The notes: generated from the letters alone by a model not told the origin. Shown: positions 3,487 to 22,930, counted from the first letter of the stretch. The stretch: DNA of 24,000 nucleotides from an uncultured Candidatus Saccharibacteria bacterium (GCA_964650255.1 CAZYQT010000006.1:1-24000); one strand, 5' to 3'. Made by a program: numbers and translations.

Positions 3487-3496
3487 CTTAAAAAAT

Positions 3497-3520
3497 AAAA
3501 GCGCCGCAAGGCGCTTTTAT
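3497..3520. terminator. Bidirectional intrinsic terminator between convergent ftsK and the trmB-like gene
   Basis: AAAA-GCGCC-gcaa-GGCGC-TTTT. Confidence 0.75.
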
Positions 3521-3525
3521 CTTTA

Positions 3526-4290
3526 TTAAATTTTTTCCCAAAACCCTTTAAACATTTCACGTAAGTTTTTAGCCATGACTGCATCATGCGTTTCTACTAA
3601 ATAGTGTGGATGTTGGTTAGTAACTATAAACAAAACATAATCACCAAGAACTGCATGTGTAGCAGTAAAGTCCACGGATTTATCCCAATACTTCACTTGT
3701 CGATTTTTATTCTTCACAGCATCGGCAATTTCTTTTTCCGAAGGTTTATTGTTTGTAATTAAGCGTGTACCAAAATCCTCTGGAAAAATTTCCCAATGAT
3801 GCTCAACCCAATCTTTATATTCTTGTAATATTGATGCATCTTGAAATCCCCACCAGTTTTTCTCATTAATGTTTTTGGCACTCTCAATCCAAATAGGTAA
3901 TTGCTTAAATAGAAAATCTTTTAATTGTGGCTCATCAATAAAACGAATTTTAGGAACAGAATACTGCTTTGATTTTGGCAAAGCCTGTAATTCCAAGATT
4001 GCCTGCTCAATAGCAGTCTTTTTTTGTTCAAGTTCCTGTTCTTGCGATTTATATAGAGTGCGGAGTTCTTCGGGGGGCGTGGCTGTGTAGTAGGTGGTGG
4101 TGCCGCCCAAGTCCTCTTGGATAATTCCTTTTTTGATAAGCTCCTTAGAAACGCTGTAAACAGTAGTTCTATTGATTTTTGATACTCGGGAAACGTCTGC
4201 AGCTGATAGTTTACCATTCTCTTGAATGCACAAATATACGGCGATTTCCTTATCTGTGAATCCTAATTCTTGCAAATATTCGTTTAGCAT
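3526..4290 (-). CDS. TrmB-family transcriptional regulator
   Basis: The N-terminal winged HTH is typical of TrmB (LGFTDKEIAVYLCIQENGKLSAADVSRVSKINRTTVYSVSKELIKKGII), followed by a coiled-coil linker and a C-terminal effector-like domain. Confidence 0.8.
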   Translation of the reverse strand: MLNEYLQELGFTDKEIAVYLCIQENGKLSAADVSRVSKINRTTVYSVSKELIKKGIIQEDLGGTTTYYTATPPEELRTLYKSQEQELEQKKTAIEQAILELQALPKSKQYSVPKIRFIDEPQLKDFLFKQLPIWIESAKNINEKNWWGFQDASILQEYKDWVEHHWEIFPEDFGTRLITNNKPSEKEIADAVKNKNRQVKYWDKSVDFTATHAVLGDYVLFIVTNQHPHYLVETHDAVMAKNLREMFKGFWEKI

Positions 4291-4296
4291 AGACTA

Positions 4297-4305
4297 ATTA
4301 TAGCA
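4297..4305 (-). promoter_or_regulatory. Extended -10 (TGCTATAAT) placed 6 nt before the trmB-like ATG; candidate leaderless promoter
   Basis: Minus strand reads TGCTATAAT-tagtct-ATG. Confidence 0.5.
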
Positions 4306-4389
4306 TGTTGTTGGAGATAAATCAACATATATTTTATGTTATAAATAAGCCATTTATCTTAAAATAATCTAACATTATTTGGAATACTC

Positions 4390-4418
4390 TTGACAAAATG
4401 TCAAAAACTTGATATACT
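4390..4418 (+). promoter_or_regulatory. Near-consensus sigma70 promoter of the hammerhead-containing operon, with an operator-like palindrome over the -35
   Basis: TTGACA (4390-4395)-17 nt-TATACT (4413-4418). The perfect palindrome TTGACAaaaTGTCAA spans 4390-4404. Confidence 0.7.
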
Positions 4419-4482
4419 GGTCTCAACAAAAATAAATTCTGGTGTAGCGAGCCAAAAATACGCAAAATTTTAGGAGGAAAAA

Positions 4483-4875
4483 ATGGTACCAAGTTTTGAC
4501 AGTAATGGCTTAGCTGATGGCCTTACGGAAATGGATGAGGCGTCCAAAGCTCGATTGGAAGAATGGAAGGAAGCAATTAACAAACTTCCTGATACTGAGG
4601 ACTTTGATACAGACACACTCTCCAATCAAGCTTACATCTTAATACAAGGGGCGCTAGATGTAGGTTTTGATGAACATAGATCCCATGATGTGTTCTATCA
4701 ATTCAATCAAGGTGATCGAGCTCTCTTAACTGAAAGTTGCAATTGCAGTAGCGGTAGTCTGTGCCCGGCTAGACAAGCGAAAGTTAGATTCGATGGAACA
4801 TGGAATGAAGCTTACGCCGAGATGGTCAAGCTTTTGAAAAATAAAGCTAACCAAATTCCACAACCACCTGTGTGA
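4483..4875 (+). CDS. Hypothetical acidic protein, 130 aa (operon ORF1)
   Basis: AGGAGG lies 6 nt upstream of the ATG. No family recognised. Confidence 0.65.
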   Translation: MVPSFDSNGLADGLTEMDEASKARLEEWKEAINKLPDTEDFDTDTLSNQAYILIQGALDVGFDEHRSHDVFYQFNQGDRALLTESCNCSSGSLCPARQAKVRFDGTWNEAYAEMVKLLKNKANQIPQPPV

Positions 4876-4898
4876 AAACAGTTAAATCTTTTAGGTTC

Positions 4899-4971
4899 GA
4901 GAGGTCCTATTAAAACCTCTCACTGTCTCGAAGTGAATACTTCGACTGATGAGCTCAAAAGAGCGAAACAG
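4899..4971 (+). ncRNA. 7-bp hairpin (4899-4921) plus type III hammerhead ribozyme (4923-4971), copy 1
   Basis: CUGUC|UCGAAG-UGAAUA-CUUCGA-CUGAUGA-GCUC-AAAA-GAGC-GAAA-CAG. All invariant core positions are present, with a GUC cleavage triplet. Predicted cleavage falls after C4927. Confidence 0.88.
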
Positions 4972-5045
4972 AAAATCCAGCATGTGACTGGTTCGCGGGC
5001 TGATAAGGATCGCGCGAGACATTAAGCAATAGGAGGAAATTAAAT

Positions 5046-5417
5046 ATGCAAAATTTGTTGACTAACAAATTAGAAGCTGACTTAGCAGCTGTAGTTGCCA
5101 CTGAAGCATTTAATGATGCTGCGCACGCTGCTGAGTGGAAATTTGTTGAGTATGTGAACATTAAACAATTTAATGGTTCCATATCAGCAACTGCTATATA
5201 TTCATCAGATGATGTGATATTAGTATACGCTAATGGCTATGGTGACAAAAACCATTTTGCTCATTCGTTTTTGAGGCACACCTTGGAGAAGGCGGGCTTC
5301 GCGTATGCTGAGATAAATCTATATTTATCAATTCACACTGGATTAAGGCCTTGTTTAGTAATTTCTGATTACGATAAGTCTGTGAGTCCAGCTGAGTATA
5401 TATCTAGCAGGCTTTAA
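5046..5417 (+). CDS. Hypothetical protein, 123 aa (operon ORF2, bracketed by the two ribozymes)
   Basis: AGGAGG at 5031-5036 lies 9 nt upstream of the ATG. No family recognised. Confidence 0.65.
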   Translation: MQNLLTNKLEADLAAVVATEAFNDAAHAAEWKFVEYVNIKQFNGSISATAIYSSDDVILVYANGYGDKNHFAHSFLRHTLEKAGFAYAEINLYLSIHTGLRPCLVISDYDKSVSPAEYISSRL

Positions 5418-5649
5418 TTGCGCTGTTTAAATAAACAGTTCGCAATATCCCAGAGCTTAGTCTGACTGGGGGATATCTAATTTAATGCGCTATGAAAGAC
5501 CGAAAAGCGCGAAGCAGTATGTGACTGTGGACAGTGAATTAGACTAAATATCATGTCGTGAGACAGCAATATTTAGAAATTAATAAGCTCCACGTGATAG
5601 CCGTTTGTCTATCAACCTCCCCGCTCAAGTAGGTTTAAACCTTGAGCAC

Positions 5650-5722
5650 AGGAGATTCTAATAAAATCTCCTTCTGTCTCGAAGTGAATGCTTCGACTGA
5701 TGAGGCCAAAAGGACGAAACAG
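5650..5722 (+). ncRNA. 7-bp hairpin (5650-5672) plus type III hammerhead ribozyme (5674-5722), copy 2
   Basis: CUGUC|UCGAAG-UGAAUG-CUUCGA-CUGAUGA-GGCC-AAAA-GGAC-GAAA-CAG. The core is identical to copy 1. Stem II has one G.A mismatch and one compensated pair. Predicted cleavage falls after C5678. Confidence 0.8.
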
Positions 5723-5755
5723 ACAAATATGATAGTCAATCAATAGGGGGTGTGT

Positions 5756-6163
5756 ATGTTAAAGATTGAAAATGATGAGTTTAAGAACTTTCCTGTTGAT
5801 CAGCAGGTAAATATTATCCATAAAGCAATTATGGCTGATGATGATATAGAATTTTTCTTTTATGAACTGAAATGCGGTGTGGAAGAAAAAAAGTCCATTT
5901 ACAAGGCTCACTGTAAAAATCAAACGAGAGATGGGTCAATAGTTCGAATGTTTGAAGCTATGGATTTAAGTGATGTTGAAAAACAGGAATTAGCAGAGTG
6001 CGCGATTACTGCAATTATCTCAAATAAATTTTTGAGCTCTGCAAGATATAGATATGACATGCTCTCAAAATATCTTAGTTCAGACAAGCAGGCAAAGTTT
6101 TCTGCCGTGCTTGAGGATCGTGAGCATCAATCTTCATTGCGTAAAAGTGTTCTAGGTATATGA
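5756..6163 (+). CDS. Hypothetical protein, 135 aa (operon ORF3)
   Basis: The track starts at GTG 5750. I prefer ATG 5756 because AGGGGG (5745-5750) would then be a properly spaced SD. No family recognised. Confidence 0.6.
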   Translation: MLKIENDEFKNFPVDQQVNIIHKAIMADDDIEFFFYELKCGVEEKKSIYKAHCKNQTRDGSIVRMFEAMDLSDVEKQELAECAITAIISNKFLSSARYRYDMLSKYLSSDKQAKFSAVLEDREHQSSLRKSVLGI

Positions 6164-6184
6164 ACCAAAACACGCATTTATTTT

Positions 6185-6212
6185 GCCGGTTGTTAATTCA
6201 GCCGGCTTTTTT
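6185..6212 (+). terminator. Intrinsic terminator of the three-ORF operon
   Basis: GCCGGUUG-uuaauu-CAGCCGGC (8 bp including one U.G) followed by TTTTTTgTTTT. Confidence 0.7.
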
Positions 6213-6233
6213 GTTTTCCCAGTTTAGTCTGGA

Positions 6234-6324
6234 AAACAGAAGGATATTTGCTAAGCAGGCAGTCACGGTAAGCGCAGCCGCGAAGCGGCGTGAGCACTGT
6301 CTGCGTGCAGATATCCTTCTGTTT
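6234..6324. repeat. Long imperfect GC-rich inverted repeat (extended hairpin), function unknown
   Basis: Perfect 14-bp outer arms: AAACAGAAGGATAT at 6234-6247 and ATATCCTTCTGTTT at 6311-6324. Inner 9-bp stem GCAGGCAGT/ACTGTCTGC. Apical GCCGC-gaa-GCGGC. Confidence 0.6.
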
Positions 6325-6356
6325 CATCAGTCTCAAAATATGCTATGATAAATGAT

Positions 6357-10856: not shown

Positions 10857-11329
10857 GTAGTTAATTAGTACCTTGAAATAAAAACATAAGAAACAAACTG
10901 GACTAAGGAAATCTGCGCTGAAGGCTAGAGACTTCATTGAGCGTAGGCTTCCTTCTTACTTCTCGTCATAGCTTATTCTAATCTAAGCTGATTGAAAAAC
11001 AAAAACAAAATGAAGGTTCTTCTCTTGACTTACAAGAGACAAAAATTTTTCTAAAACAAAAACAAAATAAAAAGAACAAAAAGTTTAGGTCGAGAGACCA
11101 CAAGAGAGGTTTGAAGTGCAGTTTGTAATTTGATTAGAATGCAAACATTTCTTTCAACATCGTGGTTGGAAGAACGCTTAAGGCTGATGAAATGTTAGCT
11201 ACTGTCTAAGGTCTAGGATCTCAAAGGTTGGGATCCTGCAGCTTAGACGGTGACTAGCTCAAAGCTTTGAGTTAGCGACGTCAACAGCTCGTTCATTTAT
11301 AATTTAGGGGCCCGTTGGGGTCGCTTTTT
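10857..11329 (+). ncRNA. Candidate structured noncoding RNA of about 470 nt, or a long structured leader; class unknown
   Basis: No ORF of 60 aa or more on either strand across 10826-11377. A promoter lies upstream and a stem plus U5 (GCGAC...GUCGC-UUUUU, 11275-11329) lies at the 3' end. Several hairpins are present, including a 14-bp interrupted stem (11197-11210 pairing with 11242-11259), AGGAUC/GAUCCU, GGUC-GAGA-GACC and UCUCUUG-acuua-CAAGAGA. The 16-nt sequence AAAACAAAAACAAAAT occurs twice. Confidence 0.45.
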
Positions 11330-15966: not shown

Positions 15967-16827
15967 ATGAATTTTATCAAAAAATTATCATCAGCAGTTT
16001 TATTGGCAGCAGCTGCTTTGGTGTTGATCGCGCCTAGCTTTTTGTTAACTCCACGGACTGTCCAGGCTGAATCTTGTAGCCCATTATTTTTAGTGCGACC
16101 TTCTCAGAATCAAGCTGGCTCCGACGGCGTGATTGTTAAACCAGCAGACGCTAAGAAAGTTTATTTAGATGTAAAATTTAGTCTTAACGGCCCGAGCACA
16201 TGTCAAGGACCAGCATACGTTGTGGCCAAGTGGAACAATGCAAAAACTACAATCACAAATAATGTAGACAAAGTTTTTAATTACACCAGCGTCCCCGCAA
16301 GAGAAGGCGTGTATAGAATTGAACTACAGATTCCGAATAGTGGTTTCGGTAAAGAGGTTACTGTAACTGTTGCCGATGACGTTCTTCATCCGCCAGCCGG
16401 TGGGATTGGGACTGAGAATGGAAGTCACGTGCAGCCAACTGACAAGCCAACGAATGGTAGCAAGGGCGGGTTTGTACCTTGTGGCAATACTGCAGATAAT
16501 CCTTGCCAAATTGGTCATCTATTTTCCGCATTTATTGTAATCATCAATTATCTAATGGCCATGGCAGGGTTTGTGGCAGTACTAGCAATTATTTTTGCCG
16601 GGTTTATGATGATCTATTCTCAAGGACAAGAGAAGCTTAAAGAAGCCAAGGGCCGTTTTACAGGAGCAATCTTTGGGTTGGTGTTAGTGGCGGCGGCATT
16701 TGTCTTGATTAACTCTCTTTTCGCTGGCAGCTTGAGTATTGGTGTAAAAGATGGCGGTAAAATTTTATCAGACCCTCTCGAGTATATTAATACGAGAAGT
16801 AGTACTACTAATTCAAATACAAGATAA
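15967..16827 (+). CDS. Pilin-like paralog P1: signal peptide, beta-rich N-terminal domain and C-terminal VirB2/TrbC-like two-helix module
   Basis: Signal peptide ...TVQA|E. The C-terminus reads IINYLMAMAGFVAVLAIIFAGFMMIYSQGQEKLKEAKGRFTGAIFGLVLVAAAFVLI. Confidence 0.75.
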   Translation: MNFIKKLSSAVLLAAAALVLIAPSFLLTPRTVQAESCSPLFLVRPSQNQAGSDGVIVKPADAKKVYLDVKFSLNGPSTCQGPAYVVAKWNNAKTTITNNVDKVFNYTSVPAREGVYRIELQIPNSGFGKEVTVTVADDVLHPPAGGIGTENGSHVQPTDKPTNGSKGGFVPCGNTADNPCQIGHLFSAFIVIINYLMAMAGFVAVLAIIFAGFMMIYSQGQEKLKEAKGRFTGAIFGLVLVAAAFVLINSLFAGSLSIGVKDGGKILSDPLEYINTRSSTTNSNTR

Positions 16828-16832
16828 TACCT

Positions 16833-17231
16833 ATGAAGCATTTACTAGCGCTGAATAATAATTCCGGCGGCATCAAAATAAATAGCAACACCGGCAATAA
16901 TTCAAATCAGACTGGTTCTGGTTCGGGCACTGGTACTGGTGGTAATGCCAATAATTTTACTTTGGTTAAACCGGGTAAGATTACTGATGTTTTCAATGGC
17001 AAGTCTTTGCTTCAAATTGGAACTATGTTCATCAATTTTCTTTTGGCCATGATTGTAATTGCTGCAGTGGTGGTAATTGTTATTGCCGGATTCAAGATGG
17101 TTTTAGGTGGTGCCAACGAATCGCAAATCGCCAAGCAAAAAAAAGCCATTGTCTATGCCATTGCTGGTTTGGTGGTAGCGTTTATGTCGTTTGCCATTGT
17201 CCAAATTGTTCAAAACTTTATTCAGAAATAA
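16833..17231 (+). CDS. Pilin-like paralog P2: N/G/S/T-rich N-terminus with no obvious signal peptide
   Basis: The C-terminus reads FINFLLAMIVIAAVVVIVIAGFKMVLGGANESQIAKQKKAIVYAIAGLVVAFMSFAIVQIV. Confidence 0.7.
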   Translation: MKHLLALNNNSGGIKINSNTGNNSNQTGSGSGTGTGGNANNFTLVKPGKITDVFNGKSLLQIGTMFINFLLAMIVIAAVVVIVIAGFKMVLGGANESQIAKQKKAIVYAIAGLVVAFMSFAIVQIVQNFIQK

Positions 17232-17232
17232 A

Positions 17233-18153
17233 ATGCGAAAAACTGTGCAAAATTTGAAACTATTTTTTTACAGGCTGGGGCTAACTATTTTTGTCGCGTT
17301 CTTATTGATGGGGAGTAGTTCTACAACTGCCCATGCTCAAGCCAGCGCTACAGCCACAGACGGACGATGTGTAACAATCAAAGTATTTCTAATTAATTCA
17401 GCGGCCAACACCCCAGCCAATATAACCAGAATTAAAATTTCTGATGCTGGTAAATACGCTCTTCAGGTTGATATCAAAACTAATTTCGGCTGTACAGTTA
17501 ATGGAAAGTACACGTTAAAAGGTCAAACTTATGAGAATCAAAATGGTACCAATACTACCCCGCAAGAAACTTTTTATTTTGCTAACAGGCAGCCTGTCAC
17601 AACAAATGATTTTGCAAAGCGAACGGATGCCTTTGGCAGGCCAGCACATCCTTATTCGTATGTATATACTCTAGATTATGATAGCGACGATCTTTCCACT
17701 AATCTTTCCGCTCATATTACAATTACTTTTACGGACGACAAGGGTAATTCAGGTTCAACCCCAGGAAGCGGCGGTGGCAGTGGTAGCGGCAGCGGTACGG
17801 GCAGTAACAGTAATGTTCCTCCAAACAACAGTGTTCCGAATGAAGATATAAAAACTGATACAGATTTTACTTTAGTTAACTTAGATGATCCAATTGGCAC
17901 TTTTGATAATTTACTAAATTTCGGCTCAGTTCCGGAAGCAATTGTTAGCCTCATCAGGATATTGTTTATATTAATTGGTATTTCCGCAGTGATAGTCATA
18001 ATTATTGCTGGGTTCCGAATGGTTGTAGACAGCGGAAATGAGACGCAAATGAAGAAAGCCAAGGAAGCAATTACGTGGTCAATCGTTGGTCTAATAGTTT
18101 CTATTTTAGCGTTTAGTATTGTGGCAATTATTCAAAGAATTATTCAAGGTTAA
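17233..18153 (+). CDS. Pilin-like paralog P3: signal peptide, beta-rich domain, Gly/Ser linker and pilin module
   Basis: The ATG at 17233 sits 1 nt after the P2 stop codon, so the tracked upstream extension is an artifact. Signal peptide ...TAHA|QA. The C-terminus reads LIRILFILIGISAVIVIIIAGFRMVVDSGNETQMKKAKEAITWSIVGLIVSILAFSIV. Confidence 0.75.
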   Translation: MRKTVQNLKLFFYRLGLTIFVAFLLMGSSSTTAHAQASATATDGRCVTIKVFLINSAANTPANITRIKISDAGKYALQVDIKTNFGCTVNGKYTLKGQTYENQNGTNTTPQETFYFANRQPVTTNDFAKRTDAFGRPAHPYSYVYTLDYDSDDLSTNLSAHITITFTDDKGNSGSTPGSGGGSGSGSGTGSNSNVPPNNSVPNEDIKTDTDFTLVNLDDPIGTFDNLLNFGSVPEAIVSLIRILFILIGISAVIVIIIAGFRMVVDSGNETQMKKAKEAITWSIVGLIVSILAFSIVAIIQRIIQG

Positions 18154-18154
18154 A

Positions 18155-18595
18155 ATGATGATAAAATTTTCTAAATTTATTTGTGCAGTAGCAACGGCTT
18201 TGGCGTTGCTTGTTCCCCAAATTGCTTTAGCTGCAAACAATAACAATGGTAGTGCTAATGGCTCCGCTGGTAAGACAGACACCTGCGCGACTCTTAAGCA
18301 ACAGTTTGATAATGCCAATGGCTCCAATGTGATTGCTAATATTCCCCAGTACTGCCGCATAGAATTTGTTTATCAAAAATTTATTAATACTGCTCTGTAT
18401 TTCATTGGTATTGTGGCAGTAATTGCCGTAATATACGGCGGTTATTTGTACATGACGGCTGGTGGCAACGCAGCCCAAGTTAAAAAGGGCCGGTCGGTAT
18501 TGACTTGGGCAATAATTGGCTTAGTAGTAGTGCTGGCGGCTGCTGTAATTGTGAATGTGGTGGTGAACTTGCTTGTTGAAAACAAATTTGTATAA
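18155..18595 (+). CDS. Pilin-like paralog P4 (short form)
   Basis: The ATG at 18155 sits 1 nt after the P3 stop codon. Signal peptide ...QIALA|A. Module: FINTALYFIGIVAVIAVIYGGYLYMTAGGNAAQVKKGRSVLTWAIIGLVVVLAAAVIV. Confidence 0.75.
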   Translation: MMIKFSKFICAVATALALLVPQIALAANNNNGSANGSAGKTDTCATLKQQFDNANGSNVIANIPQYCRIEFVYQKFINTALYFIGIVAVIAVIYGGYLYMTAGGNAAQVKKGRSVLTWAIIGLVVVLAAAVIVNVVVNLLVENKFV

Positions 18596-18667
18596 TCCGC
18601 AAGTTTTCAGTAAAATATAGATACGTTACATATCATATAAATCCACACTTGAAAGGTGGTGAAAACA

Positions 18668-19105
18668 TTGAAACAAACCTTAAAAAAACTTAATTGGTTG
18701 AACGTTGCACTATTTGTAATAGTAACTGTAGTATCAATCGCTCCAGTTCTAGCTACTGCTGCGGCTCCCCGCTTAGCAGACGCTCAACTCATCAACCAAT
18801 TCGTTAATAACTGTCCTGCTGATACTGGAGTGCGTTGTTCCGAAGGGAGCATTGCTTCTATTTTCCGCTTGATCATCAACTGGGCGTTGGCAATTGCCTT
18901 TATCGCTGCTGTAATTATGCTTATCTATGGTGGTTTCCGTTACATCACTTCTGCTGGTAACTCTGACCAGGCTACTACAGGTAAGACTGCAATCGTGAAT
19001 GCTTTGATTGGTATAGTTATTATCGTTCTATCATACATTATTGTTCAGATCGTTTACCGCTTCGTTGCTGGTAATGGCACTGGCGGAGTTCTCGGCGGAC
19101 CGTAA
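18668..19105 (+). CDS. Pilin-like paralog P5 (short form), probable TTG start
   Basis: TTG 18668 lies 8 nt after AAAGGTGG and aligns with the TTG start of P6 (MKQTLKKLNW vs MKLENKKFNW). Module: IINWALAIAFIAAVIMLIYGGFRYITSAGNSDQATTGKTAIVNALIGIVIIVLSYIIVQIVY. Confidence 0.75.
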   Translation: MKQTLKKLNWLNVALFVIVTVVSIAPVLATAAAPRLADAQLINQFVNNCPADTGVRCSEGSIASIFRLIINWALAIAFIAAVIMLIYGGFRYITSAGNSDQATTGKTAIVNALIGIVIIVLSYIIVQIVYRFVAGNGTGGVLGGP

Positions 19106-19119
19106 TTAAAAACAAGAAT

Positions 19120-19521
19120 TTGAAATTAGAAAACAAAAAATTTAATTGGACTAGTGTTGCATCAATGTTGGTGGCTTTAGCGATAGTTTTGGCCCCAGCG
19201 GTGTTGCCTCATGTTGCAATGGCTCAGCAAGGAATAGGGCAAATGCCTTGTCCTCGCGACCTGGGATATTTGTGTACTGATGGCAGCGTTGCCTCTATAT
19301 TTAGATTAATTCTAAACTGGGCAATGACTATTGCTTTCCTTGCAGCAGTTATCTATTTAATCTACGGTGGATTTCAATACATCTCTTCCGCAGGTAATAC
19401 AGATAAAGCAACCAAGGGACGCGCAACAATTGTGAATGCCATTATTGGCATAGTAATAATTGTCTTGTCATATACTATAGTTCAAATTGTGTACAACTTT
19501 GTTGTCAGCCCTACTCGGTAG
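19120..19521 (+). CDS. Pilin-like paralog P6 (short form), TTG start
   Basis: Closest paralog of P5. Module: ILNWAMTIAFLAAVIYLIYGGFQYISSAGNTDKATKGRATIVNAIIGIVIIVLSYTIVQIVY. Confidence 0.75.
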   Translation: MKLENKKFNWTSVASMLVALAIVLAPAVLPHVAMAQQGIGQMPCPRDLGYLCTDGSVASIFRLILNWAMTIAFLAAVIYLIYGGFQYISSAGNTDKATKGRATIVNAIIGIVIIVLSYTIVQIVYNFVVSPTR

Positions 19522-19610
19522 GTGACATAGAAATGGTTTTCCCGCACTCGCTGCGGGATAGCTCCGGGAATAAAATTTAATATTTTACTTCCGGAATTAT
19601 TAAAACAATT

Positions 19611-20027
19611 ATGACAAAAAAAATCTTTTTACCATTAGTCGCTACAATGATCTTCGTTACTTCGATTTTCATGGGTCCGACTTTGGCTGTATCGCAAGTA
19701 CACGCGCAGAGCACAACTAACACTGGCGACAAAGTCCAGGATGGACTAACTGATATTGGCGCAGCTTATCCTGCCGGCGCAAAGCAAGAGCGCAATTTAA
19801 AAGACGTTATTCGCAAAGTTATTAACTGGGCGTTGTATTTCGCTGCTATCATTGCCGTTATCTTTATAATCATTGGTGGATTTATGTACATAACTTCTGC
19901 TGGTGATCCTGGTAAAGCAACTAAAGGCCGCACTACATTGGTTAATGCTTTAATTGGTTTAACAATTATCGTACTATCTTACTTGATTGTTCAGATTGTT
20001 TACAACTTCCTGATCAACCGAACATAA
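19611..20027 (+). CDS. Pilin-like paralog P7 (short form)
   Basis: Signal peptide ...QVHA|Q. Module: VINWALYFAAIIAVIFIIIGGFMYITSAGDPGKATKGRTTLVNALIGLTIIVLSYLIVQIVY. Confidence 0.78.
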   Translation: MTKKIFLPLVATMIFVTSIFMGPTLAVSQVHAQSTTNTGDKVQDGLTDIGAAYPAGAKQERNLKDVIRKVINWALYFAAIIAVIFIIIGGFMYITSAGDPGKATKGRTTLVNALIGLTIIVLSYLIVQIVYNFLINRT

Positions 20028-20042
20028 TTCTAGTCATTTAAC

Positions 20043-20867
20043 GTGAAAATTTCGCAAAAATTTTTGAATAAATTTTCCATGGCCATGCTACTGCTATTGA
20101 GCATGGCTTTTTTGGGTGTTGGTTTTGTATTTAAAGCCCATCCAGCTGAGGCAGCAACGATTGATGTGTGTATCAATCGTAGCAATGGCAATCTAGATTA
20201 CCCAACTAATAATCAGTGTCCAACAAATTTTGAATTAGCTACTGGAATCTCCACTCAGTATGGCGGTGTTTGCATTGCTCAAGAAGAAGATACAGGGCGT
20301 TTCGGAATAGTTTATCCTACTGGCGAATATGAATTGGATAGAAACGGTAAAACTTGTGTCTTAAGTTCAGACCACGCAACCCCAATTGGTGATTTTGTAA
20401 GATTGAGAACAACTGGAACCGGTGGTGGTAGTGGGGACCCTGTTGATCCAGGTGGTAGTGGTTCAGGGCCAGGTTCTGGTTCCGGCAGTGGAAGCGGTTC
20501 AGGCTCAGGGTCTGGATCGGGATCATCGACAACAAGTAATGCTGCCTGCGATCCACCACAAGAAGGCTTCCATAAGGTTGGGCCACTTTGTGTTCCCAAT
20601 AGCCCATTCACTAACAAAGATGCTCCGATTAACTCTCCAACAGCAGCTGGGCTTGCCGTAAAGATCATCAAAATAGCATTGTATTTTGCAGGCATAGTGG
20701 CAGTAATTATGATGATTATTGGTGGTTATCAGGTCATGACTGCTGGCGCGAATGCAACCCAAGCCACTGATGGTCGCAAAACCCTTACCAATGCTATTAT
20801 TGGCTTAGTCATAGTGATTTTGTCGTACATTGTCATCCAGGCTATTACTAATTACCTCACTAAATAA
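20043..20867 (+). CDS. Pilin-like paralog P8: signal peptide, Cys-containing N-terminal domain, long Gly/Ser linker and pilin module
   Basis: GTG start; an internal ATG start is possible. Signal peptide ...PAEA|A. Linker: (GS)n. Module: IIKIALYFAGIVAVIMMIIGGYQVMTAGANATQATDGRKTLTNAIIGLVIVILSYIVIQAI. Confidence 0.75.
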   Translation: MKISQKFLNKFSMAMLLLLSMAFLGVGFVFKAHPAEAATIDVCINRSNGNLDYPTNNQCPTNFELATGISTQYGGVCIAQEEDTGRFGIVYPTGEYELDRNGKTCVLSSDHATPIGDFVRLRTTGTGGGSGDPVDPGGSGSGPGSGSGSGSGSGSGSGSGSSTTSNAACDPPQEGFHKVGPLCVPNSPFTNKDAPINSPTAAGLAVKIIKIALYFAGIVAVIMMIIGGYQVMTAGANATQATDGRKTLTNAIIGLVIVILSYIVIQAITNYLTK

Positions 20868-20944: not shown

Positions 20945-21031
20945 GCCGGAGTGGCGAAATTGGCAGACGCACCAGCCTTAGGAGCTGGCGGGGGCAACCC
21001 TGTGGAGGTTCAAGTCCTCTCTCCGGCACCA
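20945..21031 (+). tRNA. tRNA-Leu, anticodon UAG, class II with long variable arm and encoded CCA
   Basis: Acceptor GCCGGAG/CTCCGGC. Anticodon stem CCAGC/GCTGG with loop CTTAGGA. Variable arm of about 15 nt. T arm GGAGG-TTCAAGT-CCTCT. Discriminator A followed by CCA. Confidence 0.92.
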
Positions 21032-21052
21032 TCAATATTATTAAATTTTTTT

Positions 21053-22930
21053 ATGGGTAAAATTATTAAAAATATCATCTTAATCCTGATTGGATTTTTG
21101 ATTATCTCTGTGGTGATTGCCGCCTTTACCACTCACAAAGAAACCAAGGTAGTAGCGTTGTCCGAAGTTGGGCAAATGATTAAAGATGATAAAGTTGAGA
21201 CTTTAGAAGTTAGCTCCTCGGAATTAGAAGTTAAACTTAAGGGTGATAATACAAAACAAAAAGCCAACCTTGGTTTGAATACAGACATCCCGAAGTATTT
21301 TGTAGACAGTGGTGTGCCAGCAGACAAATTGGCGAATGTAAAAATTGAATTTAAAACTCCAAGTGCTGCTAGCGAAGTTGCTGGCGCGATTTTGCCATTC
21401 TTAATTCCGTTCGTGTTAATTGCTTTGTTCATTTATTTCCTAATGCGCCAAGTGCAGGGTTCAAACAATCGCGCTTTAACTTTTGGACAGAGTTCAGTGA
21501 AGTTATCTGATGAGCAAAAGAACAAAGTGCGTTTTGCAGATGTAGCTGGTGCGAAAGAGGCAAAAGAAGAGTTGTCCGAAATTGTGCAGTTCTTAAAATT
21601 TCCACAAAAGTTTTTAGCGTTAGGTGCAAAAATCCCTAAAGGTGTTTTGTTGCTTGGTTCTCCGGGTGTTGGTAAGACTATGTTGGCTCGTGCAGTTGCC
21701 GGGGAAGCGAACGTACCGTTCTTCCATATTAGTGGTTCTGAGTTCGTAGAAATGTTTGTCGGTGTTGGTGCATCTCGTGTGCGTGATTTATTTAAGAAAG
21801 CAAAGCGCAATGCTCCTTGTATTGTGTTCATCGATGAAATTGATGCTGTTGGTCGCCAGCGGGGAGCAGGGCTCGGCGGTGGTCATGATGAACGCGAACA
21901 AACCTTGAACCAAATCTTAGTTGAGATGGATGGTTTTGAAACAGACACAAATGTAATCGTAGTAGCAGCGACCAACCGTCCAGATGTTTTGGATCCTGCG
22001 CTTCTTCGTCCCGGCCGGTTTGATCGTCAGGTCATTTTGGATTTACCAGACATTAATGACCGAGAAGCGATTTTGCAAATCCACAGTAAAAACAAACCGT
22101 TTGGCACTGGCGTAAATCTTCGCAAGATTGCTGAACGCACCCCTGGATTTTCAGGAGCCGATTTAGCTAACTTAGTTAATGAAGCGGCGATTTTGGCGGC
22201 TCGTACAGATAAAAAAGTTATAGATAACGAGGATTTAAAGGAAGCGATTGAAAAGATTGTTGTGGGTCCATCTCGCAAAAGCCACCTAATGTCTGATTAT
22301 GAAAAGAAGGTAACAGCTTACCACGAAGGTGGTCATGCCTTGGTGGGGGCGGTGTTGCCAGAAGCTGACCCTGTCCATAAAGTGACTATTCTTTCACGTG
22401 GTCGTGCTCTTGGATATACTTTAAAGTTGCCGGTTGAAGACAAGCACATGCATACCAAACAAAGTTTCTTGGATGAAATTGCATCCGCCATGGGTGGGTA
22501 TGCAGCAGAAAAATTGGTGTTTGGTGAATTAACCACGGGCGCCTCTAATGACCTGGAAAAGGCAACGAAATCTGCTCGACGATTGGTAACCCAGTTTGGT
22601 ATGAGTGATGTTATGGGCCCTGTTGTGTTGGGCGATCGCCACGAAAATGTTTTTCTGGGACGTGATCTTGGCGAACAAAGAAATTACAGTGAAGCTACTG
22701 CTCAACAAATTGATGCCGAGGTGCGCCGAATTTTAGTTGATGCAGAAGAGCGAGCCACTCAAATTATGACTCAGCACCGTGCCTATTTAGATATCATCGC
22801 AGATCGGTTGGTGAAAGAAGAAACTTTGGAACAGGAGGCCTTCACGGAAATAGTTAAGGATATTATCCCTCCAGATAAAAAGATGGTTCCTGAATTCAAG
22901 AATACTGACTTAGATAACGAAGTGGAGTAG
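21053..22930 (+). CDS. ftsH: ATP-dependent zinc metalloprotease FtsH
   Basis: N-terminal transmembrane helices, Walker A GSPGVGKT, Walker [10 protein letters not shown] and the HEGGHA zinc site. The tracked start at 20951 overlaps the tRNA, so ATG 21053 (MGKIIKNI...) is the real start. Confidence 0.95.

Follow-up and report, generated by a model that had tools for sequence, protein, structure and literature searches.

Clustered hammerhead ribozymes that flank variable genes in bacteria and prophages are the closest described relatives of the elements analyzed here. All of them cleaved in vitro, in A. tumefaciens also in vivo (PMC3088659), and bacterial arrays yielded neither circular nor spliced products (Perreault et al. 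2011, PMC3088659). Close to the A. tumefaciens cluster, a MarR/TrmB-type regulator is encoded (Perreault et al. 2011, PMC3088659). Processing of polycistronic RNA has been proposed for such clusters (PMC3088659, PMC6155905, PMC6765202), and according to the 2017 review by de la Pena the ribozymes flank 'small and non-conserved proteins' (PMC6155905). The literature acknowledges that the purpose served by hammerheads in bacteria is still open (PMC6155905, PMC6765202), and that of the arrays was not established by the earlier authors (PMC3088659, PMC6155905, PMC6765202).

In this study, we analyzed a stretch of 24,000 nt from an uncultured Candidatus Saccharibacteria bacterium (GCA_964650255.1 CAZYQT010000006.1:1-24000), which as a whole is called the window in the following. 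It carries two compact type III hammerheads, named HHR1 and HHR2, in an operon-like unit with three small open reading frames (ORFs). The motif and the operon arrangement are of already known kinds. Apparently unreported are the concentration of this hammerhead type in Patescibacteria (CPR), the attached 5′ hairpin, the conserved stem III, and the link with a TrmB-like regulator; a search of the open-access literature returned no paper linking hammerheads with CPR.

Materials and methods

For the survey of related ribozymes, a search pattern was applied to GTDB species genomes and to IMG/VR; it constrained no positions other than those of the core, of stem III, and of the base pairs next to the core. 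A covariance model, called R1 in the following, was built from 108 distinct 49-nt members of the family.

Results

Organization of the locus

The unit has the order promoter, ORF1, hairpin with HHR1, ORF2, hairpin with HHR2, ORF3, and terminator, and is divergent from the gene of a TrmB-like regulator. Its features are as follows, with + and − denoting the strand:

3526–4290 (−): TrmB-like winged-helix regulator, 254 aa (Pfam PF01978 TrmB, E = 9.9e-15)
4390–4418 (+): promoter-like TTGACA-17-TATACT with upstream TG, 11 of 12 consensus matches, putative function
4483–4875 (+): ORF1, 130 aa, with AGGAGG Shine-Dalgarno sequence
4899–4921 (+): 7-bp hairpin GAGAGGU/ACCUCUC with 9-nt loop, ending 1 nt before HHR1
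4923–4971 (+): type III hammerhead copy 1 (HHR1), 40.2 bits with RF00008 and 76.8 bits with R1, predicted cleavage at 4927/4928
5046–5417 (+): ORF2, 123 aa, orphan, with AGGAGG Shine-Dalgarno sequence
5650–5672 (+): 7-bp hairpin AGGAGAU/AUCUCCU with 9-nt loop, directly adjoining the 5-bp HHR2 stem III
5674–5722 (+): type III hammerhead copy 2 (HHR2), 36.5 bits with RF00008 and 70.2 bits with R1, predicted cleavage at 5678/5679
5756–6163 (+): ORF3, 135 aa, near-orphan, acidic, all-helical in the predicted model
6185–6215 (+): terminator-like hairpin with T-run, closing the operon

Both ribozymes are located on the same strand within this one promoter-to-terminator unit, in which they flank genes, and a signal scan found no further + strand signals between the promoter-like and the terminator-like site. 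The two predicted cleavage sites are separated by 751 nt. Between the ORF2 stop codon and HHR2 lies a gap of 256 nt, including a spacer of 232 nt (5418–5649) before the hairpin. This spacer holds several strong inverted repeats, e.g. at 5445–5478 (GATATCCCAG..CTGGGGGATATC), and contains 6 of the 17 differences to the closely related strain L191.

The promoter is conserved in the loci L005, L006, L099, and L034, and an element homologous to the terminator-like hairpin follows the last cassette in L006. Within the conserved promoter region (4387–4420, TATTGACAAAAAGTCAAAAA..GATATACT), a TTGAC-N5-GTCAA palindrome overlaps the −35 hexamer, and a second palindrome, ATGTTG..CAACAT, is located beside the start of the TrmB-like gene; both are candidate operators.

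No match was obtained for the three ORFs in Pfam, PHROG, NCBIfam, and PADLOC. They were also considered as paralogues, which was rejected given the lack of mutual similarity. ORF1 has homologues with 70% and 62% identity in syntenic loci and a conserved C-x-C-x5-C motif, and its predicted model is poor (pLDDT 49). A search of 5.8 billion sequences and an exhaustive HMMER run retrieved no match to ORF2 other than itself. For ORF3, which is preceded by a purine-rich GGGGG Shine-Dalgarno-like sequence, a single relative with 96% identity was found, and its AF2 model (pLDDT 81; the other four models 47–59) gave no PDB or BFVD match with an E-value below 0.1. ORF2 and ORF3 are treated as putative genes only, because they are orphans. 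In comparison to a 99.6% identical contig (L008), 6 of 7 differences cluster within 150 nt of ORF3 (5775–5924); all six alter an amino acid and five are changes to T. This cluster could be a recombination tract or reflect targeted diversification.

Identity of the second hammerhead

HHR2 comprises 49 nt and reads CUGUC/UCGAAG(UGAAUG)CUUCGA-CUGAUGA-GGCC(AAAA)GGAC-GAAA-CAG, with the slash at the predicted cleavage site and the loops in parentheses. Its core is complete, with C3–A9 being CUGAUGA at 5697–5703 and G12–A14 being GAA at 5716–5718. The cleavage triplet is G5676-U5677-C5678 (GUC) with C17 at position 5678, A15.1 (5719) pairs with U16.1 (5677), and the G10.1–C11.1 pair is formed by G5704 and C5715. 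Stem I comprises 6 bp, and stem III comprises 4 bp that U5673–A5723 can extend to 5 bp. Stem II is formed by three of four possible pairs, namely G5704–C5715, followed by the unpaired G5705·A5714 and then by two C–G pairs. The loop positions that are invariant across the family are intact in HHR2, as are stems I and III and every catalytic nucleotide.

The Rfam model RF00008 matches HHR2 with 36.5 bits (E = 1.3e-4) and HHR1 with 40.2 bits (E = 1.1e-5), both under the gathering score of 48.5 bits because the copies are very compact in loop 2, loop 1, and stem III. Relatives above this score exist, namely one copy in L006 with 49.0 bits and six others with 48.8–52.9 bits. The family model R1, which has both HHR1 and HHR2 among its 108 training sequences, gives HHR2 70.2 bits (E about 1e-17), and apart from the two copies no site in the window exceeds about 12 bits. 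The pattern CTGATGA-N(6-30)-CGAAA occurs three times in the window compared to 0.11 expected occurrences; the third core-like match at 17919–17957 (−) was dismissed as a chance match, being without stems I and III and scoring only 8.4 bits with R1.

As judged from its sequence, HHR2 truly belongs to a family of compact (49-nt) type III hammerheads. Rfam, R1, and the 108-member alignment thus bear out the sequence-only reading in its description of HHR2, its type III identity, and a core as in copy 1. The same reading had placed the start of ORF3 34 nt downstream, which agrees with the ATG at 5756 and the ribozyme end at 5722, and had described two changes in stem II relative to copy 1. These are literally correct: pair 10.3–11.3 changes from U-A in HHR1 to C-G in HHR2 and is compensated, while pair 10.2–11.2 changes from C-G to G·A and is not. 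Stem III is identical in both copies. The 49-mer of HHR1 is also present in identical form in a Saccharibacteria MAG locus (L099) with different flanks, where it adjoins a TrmB-like gene 73% identical to that of the window. By these matches, a Saccharibacteria origin of the window would be the most likely one.

The hammerhead family

The survey pattern was found in 117 genome stretches from GTDB species genomes and in 59 IMG/VR viral contigs. By record label, at least 81 of the 117 genome stretches are from Patescibacteria (CPR):

Saccharibacteria: 37
Other named Patescibacteria lineages: 44
Unclassified 'bacterium': 20
Other labels: 16, at least two of these contigs being also among the IMG/VR viral set (L044/L185 and L089/L144), as suggested by identical lengths and coordinates

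By this survey, compact hammerheads preceded by the 5′ hairpin are concentrated in Patescibacteria and are also found in phage contigs.

Among the 108 distinct 49-nt members, standard pairs occupy 99.7% of the pair cells, compared to 81.2% in shuffled controls and 27–45% when the partners were slid against each other. Covariation with changes on both sides is seen at all eight stem pairs that the search pattern did not constrain. A U at L1.1 and an A at L2.4 are present in 108 of 108 members, neither being imposed by the pattern; both are kept in the two window copies and are no more than suggestive of a tertiary contact between loop 1 and loop 2, as would be needed for cleavage at physiological Mg2+. 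Position 17 is C in 81 and U in 27 members.

With R1, 173 matches were found in 100 loci and 36 more in 22 further loci, with arrays of up to 6–8 ribozymes. In 46 of 47 multi-ribozyme loci all copies are on the same strand, the median spacing of the ribozymes in arrays being 678 nt, and the copies combine different types of stems I and II. Array members outside the search pattern have the stem III sequence CUGU/ACAG in 36 of 50 cases. Neighboring ORFs, as called by a crude procedure, have median lengths of 119–140 aa and share the orientation of the ribozyme in about 70% of cases, and the ribozymes sit at a median of about 50–74 nt before the next start. A Pfam family was assigned to few of 139 downstream ORFs. 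Ribozyme-proximal ORFs in related loci include two TROVE/Ro60-like proteins with a vWA domain, three methyltransferases, and one PemK/MazF toxin. Ro60 systems are associated with RtcB, and the ends that hammerhead cleavage generates are precisely those ligated by RtcB.

A further motif, GTTC[AT]TT followed by an A-run, is located 1–11 nt past the ribozyme in 61 of 188 ribozymes (loci L009–L125) compared to 0.5% of control positions; neither window copy has it, nor do most of the listed viral copies. A role of GUUC[AU]UU as an anti-stem-II switch was considered, as it can pair with AAAGGAC/AAAGAGC, and was rejected because the distribution of stem II types is the same with and without the motif.

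Hairpins upstream of the ribozymes and other flanking elements

The two window hairpins differ from each other in three of seven pairs on both sides, i.e. by compensatory changes. A perfect hairpin of at least 5 bp ending 0–3 nt before stem III precedes 76% of the family members compared to 28% of random positions. Intrinsic termination by the 5′ hairpin was ruled out, as no U-tract follows it. In the family, the hairpin arms are often Shine-Dalgarno-like on the 5′ side (GGAG/GAGG) and anti-Shine-Dalgarno-like on the 3′ side (CCUC/CUCC) and the 3′ half of the loop is A-rich; such arms and an A-rich loop half occur together in 36 of 186 members and in 0.8% of the controls.

Between the operon terminator and the rodZ-like start, a long GC-rich hairpin (6233–6325, +) is located inside the segment 6205–6345 (MFE −59 kcal/mol, z = −6.4). 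L006 has a long inverted repeat of different sequence as a counterpart at about 10905–11015, and the element is missing in L126, where the surrounding block is missing. Many family members elsewhere have long hairpins, not ORFs, 3′ of the ribozyme. One arm of this long hairpin at 6233–6325 is formed by the sequence GACUGAUGAAACAGAAGG at 6311–6330 on the − strand, a hammerhead core without stem II (R1 12.1 bits, E = 0.19), which may be a ribozyme relic or a coincidence.

Chromosomal setting

The genes of the window encode FtsK, the TrmB-like regulator (−), a RodZ-like protein, RecA, a DEDDh exonuclease, a ComM-like ATPase, a run of T4SS-pilin proteins, tRNA-Leu, and FtsH. No phage structural, integrase, terminase, or recombinase genes were found in the 24 kb with Pfam and PHROGs. 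A phage or plasmid origin of the window was rejected, since megablast against phages matched only recA (75%) and the Pfam and PHROGs assignments are those of chromosomal genes. The pilin run consists of nine consecutive ORFs (15967–20867), each with a T4SS-pilin domain (PF18895). The tRNA-Leu gene (anticodon UAG, long variable arm) is located at 20945–21031 and is overlapped by the mechanically called FtsH ORF (20951–22930); therefore, the true FtsH start lies further downstream.

Contigs of related species with ORF1 homologues are syntenic, with the TrmB-like gene, small ORFs, RodZ, and RecA. Hammerheads are present in their corresponding intergenic gaps, one in L005 and three in L006. In a comparison of the window with L005 and L006, the cassette content varies, but ORF1 and the ribozymes are retained. 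In L126 and L127, 73 nt separate FtsK (82% identical) from the following RodZ (70–71% identical), and this junction (3928–4000 in L126) has no regulator, no small ORFs, and no hammerhead. Because FtsK stands directly beside RodZ there, the block at about 3490–6340 is, by this comparison, a lineage-specific accessory island. The empty site was obtained by a RodZ-based search of metagenome contigs, which gave three loci, none of them with a hammerhead.

Of the 117 genome loci, 27 have a homologue of the TrmB-like gene next to the hammerhead array, compared to none of the 59 viral loci. Loci with such a gene beside the array include L034, L099, L114, L118, L046, L098, L026, L119, L117, and L010; the gene is divergent in the Saccharibacteria loci checked and located upstream in the same direction in several others (e.g. 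L098, L026, L119, L117, L010).

The mismatch in stem II

Pair 10.2–11.2 is C-G in 50 of the 108 members, U-A in 50, G-C in four, A-U in three, and G·A in HHR2, which is thus the sole member unpaired at this site. A non-canonical pair in stems I or II occurs in five of 108 members, and three of the other four have it at loop-closing positions; HHR2 is the only one with an internal stem II mismatch.

In strain L191, which is 99.2% identical over 2,209 nt, position 5705 is a T, giving a U-A pair and a GUCC/GGAC stem II, and this is the sole difference to the window inside the hairpin and HHR2. The same GUCC/GGAC stem II is present in L005 and in one L006 copy and is one of the two dominant stem II types of the family; HHR1 has GCUC/GAGC. 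G5705 is shared by the independent same-species assemblies L188, L189 (the same contig as L001), L190, L192, L193, and L003. Since L191 has U at this position and GUCC/GGAC recurs in L005 and L006, the mismatch goes back to a recent U-to-G substitution and not to a divergence in two steps from the GCUC/GAGC of HHR1. By this comparison of alleles, the mismatch of HHR2 is a young variant of a GUCC/GGAC stem II and no conserved design.

Nearest-neighbor calculations give a ribozyme-fold energy of −6.2 kcal/mol for HHR2 compared to −11.3 kcal/mol for HHR1, the mismatch costing about 5 kcal/mol, and an exchange G10.2U in HHR2 brings the predicted energy back to −11.3 kcal/mol. Because of this predicted cost, it is plausible that HHR2 is cleaved more slowly or less completely; compared to HHR1 and to the U-carrying sister allele this is probably the case, and HHR2 in the window strain is probably a weakened, yet not dead, ribozyme.

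Discussion

On balance, we consider it reasonably probable that the operon mRNA processes itself into three independently decaying and independently translated cistrons, with HHR2 being weakened by the recent U10.2-to-G substitution. In the polycistronic RNA, each ribozyme would fold during transcription and cut 3′ of C17 (4927/4928 and 5678/5679), which would separate the three cistrons of the tricistronic RNA. The upstream products would end with the 7-bp hairpin followed by a 6–7-nt tail with a 2′,3′-cyclic phosphate, and the downstream products would begin with a 5′-OH nucleotide already paired (U1.1–A2.1) in stem I of the compact ribozyme. The resulting cistron mRNAs would decay and be translated independently, like a natural 'ribozyme insulator'. 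This presupposes catalysis in vivo and a continuous transcript, both of which we infer. Terminal stem-loops matter in bacterial mRNA decay, and given a hairpin at the new 3′ ends and a paired 5′ nucleotide, general knowledge of mRNA decay suggests that the cistrons would be stabilized independently. If so, ribozyme punctuation would be a general route of operon mRNA processing in genome-reduced bacteria. Counting against the self-processing reading are the scores of both window copies under the Rfam gathering score (36.5 and 40.2 vs 48.5 bits), the orphan status of ORF2 and ORF3, and a co-orientation with the neighbors of only about 70%, as determined by crude ORF analysis.

Also counting against it is the minimum free energy structure of HHR2 alone in the nearest-neighbor model, which is a non-ribozyme misfold with GCUUC of stem I paired to GAGGC; because of this misfold, HHR2 could be largely inactive. 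With an isolated G10.1–C11.1 pair and the misfold, copy 2 would then be an inactive or decaying ribozyme, leaving ORF2 and ORF3 on one RNA in the window strain. The internal stem II mismatch is unique (1 of 108), the predicted energy of the isolated stem II hairpin changes from −3.8 to −0.5 kcal/mol, and in a variant this young selection may not yet have purged the defect. We nevertheless regard an inactive copy 2 as unlikely, since its catalytic nucleotides, stems I and III, and invariant loop positions are all intact, since stem I would form before the competing segment is transcribed, and since the G allele is present in all near-identical assemblies spanning position 5705, which stem from several sequencing runs. 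Moreover, hammerheads are generally known to tolerate a shortened stem II as long as G10.1–C11.1 is kept, as was reportedly found by Tuschl and Eckstein in 1993 and by Long and Uhlenbeck in 1994. The sequence-only reading had named a decaying duplicate as the alternative to an active copy 2; on the grounds of these intact elements it is not favored here.

Cleavage could also lower expression, if the 5′-OH product were open to a 5′ exonuclease, so that distal cistrons would be reduced or read-through RNA cleared. The cleavage chemistry is established to be the same as that of the glmS ribozyme, for which Collins and co-workers in 2007 reportedly described, with RNase J1, that 5′-OH products can be destabilized and not protected, a point which likewise counts against an insulator role; furthermore, the position of the ribozymes in 5′ UTRs, at a median of about 50–74 nt before the next start, fits a lowering of expression. 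We consider this rather unlikely on indirect grounds: the first nucleotide of the 3′ product would be paired (U1.1–A2.1), leaving no single-stranded 5′ end, and the enriched 5′ hairpin makes sense as a protective 3′ end.

The sequence-only reading had proposed that the two ribozymes differ in cleavage rate and that the mismatch could thereby set different processing efficiencies at the two junctions. The first part is plausible in view of the predicted stability loss of about 5 kcal/mol. The second part, a tuned mismatch providing lower processing at the ORF2/ORF3 than at the ORF1/ORF2 junction, would make use of the predicted stability difference between HHR1 and HHR2 and be in line with proposals in reviews of differential stability or translation of ribozyme-processed transcripts (PMC6765202). 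A maintained function of this kind is unsupported and quite unlikely, because the mismatch is not conserved, the 99.2% identical L191 carrying the canonical U-A and 107 of 108 members being paired at this site, and no sign of selection for G·A was found.

A main action of the ribozyme repeats in DNA, as boundaries of exchangeable cassettes with RNA cleavage as ancestral phage-derived baggage, would agree with the block of TrmB-like gene and operon missing in L126 and L127, with differing cassettes next to persistent ORF1 and ribozymes in the window, L005, and L006, with the HHR1-identical 49-mer in other flanks in L099, with the mixed stem I and II types, and with the same ribozyme type in 59 viral contigs, but is very unlikely, because compensatory covariation and an invariant core in 108 members argue for selection on RNA structure, not only on a DNA repeat, and the window yielded neither an integrase nor a recombinase.

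Beyond the favored self-processing into three cistrons, the near-invariant stem III (CUGU/ACAG) might be kept because the 3′ CUGUC>p of an excised cassette RNA could pair with ACAG at its own 5′ end or that of another cassette, rebuild the hammerhead, and be ligated by the ribozyme or by RtcB, which would generate circular or recombined translatable mini-mRNAs in Patescibacteria, with cassette arrays under the control of a regulator as their source. We regard this as highly improbable; if true, it would represent a bacterial, protein-coding counterpart of retrozymes.

The locus provides a natural test bed. It is a three-gene operon, located in the chromosome and linked to a regulator, in which one of two near-identical ribozymes has a natural single-nucleotide mutation in stem II, with a 'repaired' allele in a sister strain.

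Comparison with known systems

With RF00008 (clan CL00010), HHR2 has in common the 11-nt core, the GUC triplet, the A15.1–U16.1 and G10.1–C11.1 pairs, and the arrangement of loop-capped stems I and II with an open stem III. In contrast to the longer loop 2 of the RF00008 consensus, the window copies have a loop 2 of 4 nt (RAAA), and the family to which they belong has a 6-nt loop 1 (UGUGUA-like) and a stem III of 4–5 bp; HHR2 adds the G·A at 10.2–11.2.

The window array resembles the clusters of the type described by Perreault et al. in that several ribozymes on the same strand are part of one transcription unit and flank small, non-conserved ORFs. Those clusters are prophage-associated, whereas the window array is located in a chromosomal island between ftsK and rodZ-recA. 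Unlike them, the window family is concentrated in Patescibacteria and usually has an extra hairpin directly 5′ of stem III.

Retrozymes and viroid-like RNAs share with the window the direct repeats of type III hammerheads bracketing a unit of about 0.7 kb, here 751 nt, and the identical stem III of both window copies would likewise let the ends of an excised RNA rebuild the ribozyme. However, retrozymes and viroid-like RNAs are eukaryotic or subviral, non-coding, and proven to circularize, whereas the 751-nt unit of the window carries a Shine-Dalgarno sequence and a 123-codon ORF in a bacterial operon.

As is predicted for the window ribozymes, the glmS ribozyme cleaves in cis within a bacterial 5′ UTR and gives rise to an mRNA with a 5′-OH. 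It is metabolite-dependent and destabilizes its own mRNA, whereas the window ribozymes have no evident ligand pocket or switch. RiboJ is an engineered insulator, and it is such an uncoupling of a cistron from its upstream sequence, as brought about by insulators, that the two hammerheads of the window would provide in a natural operon.
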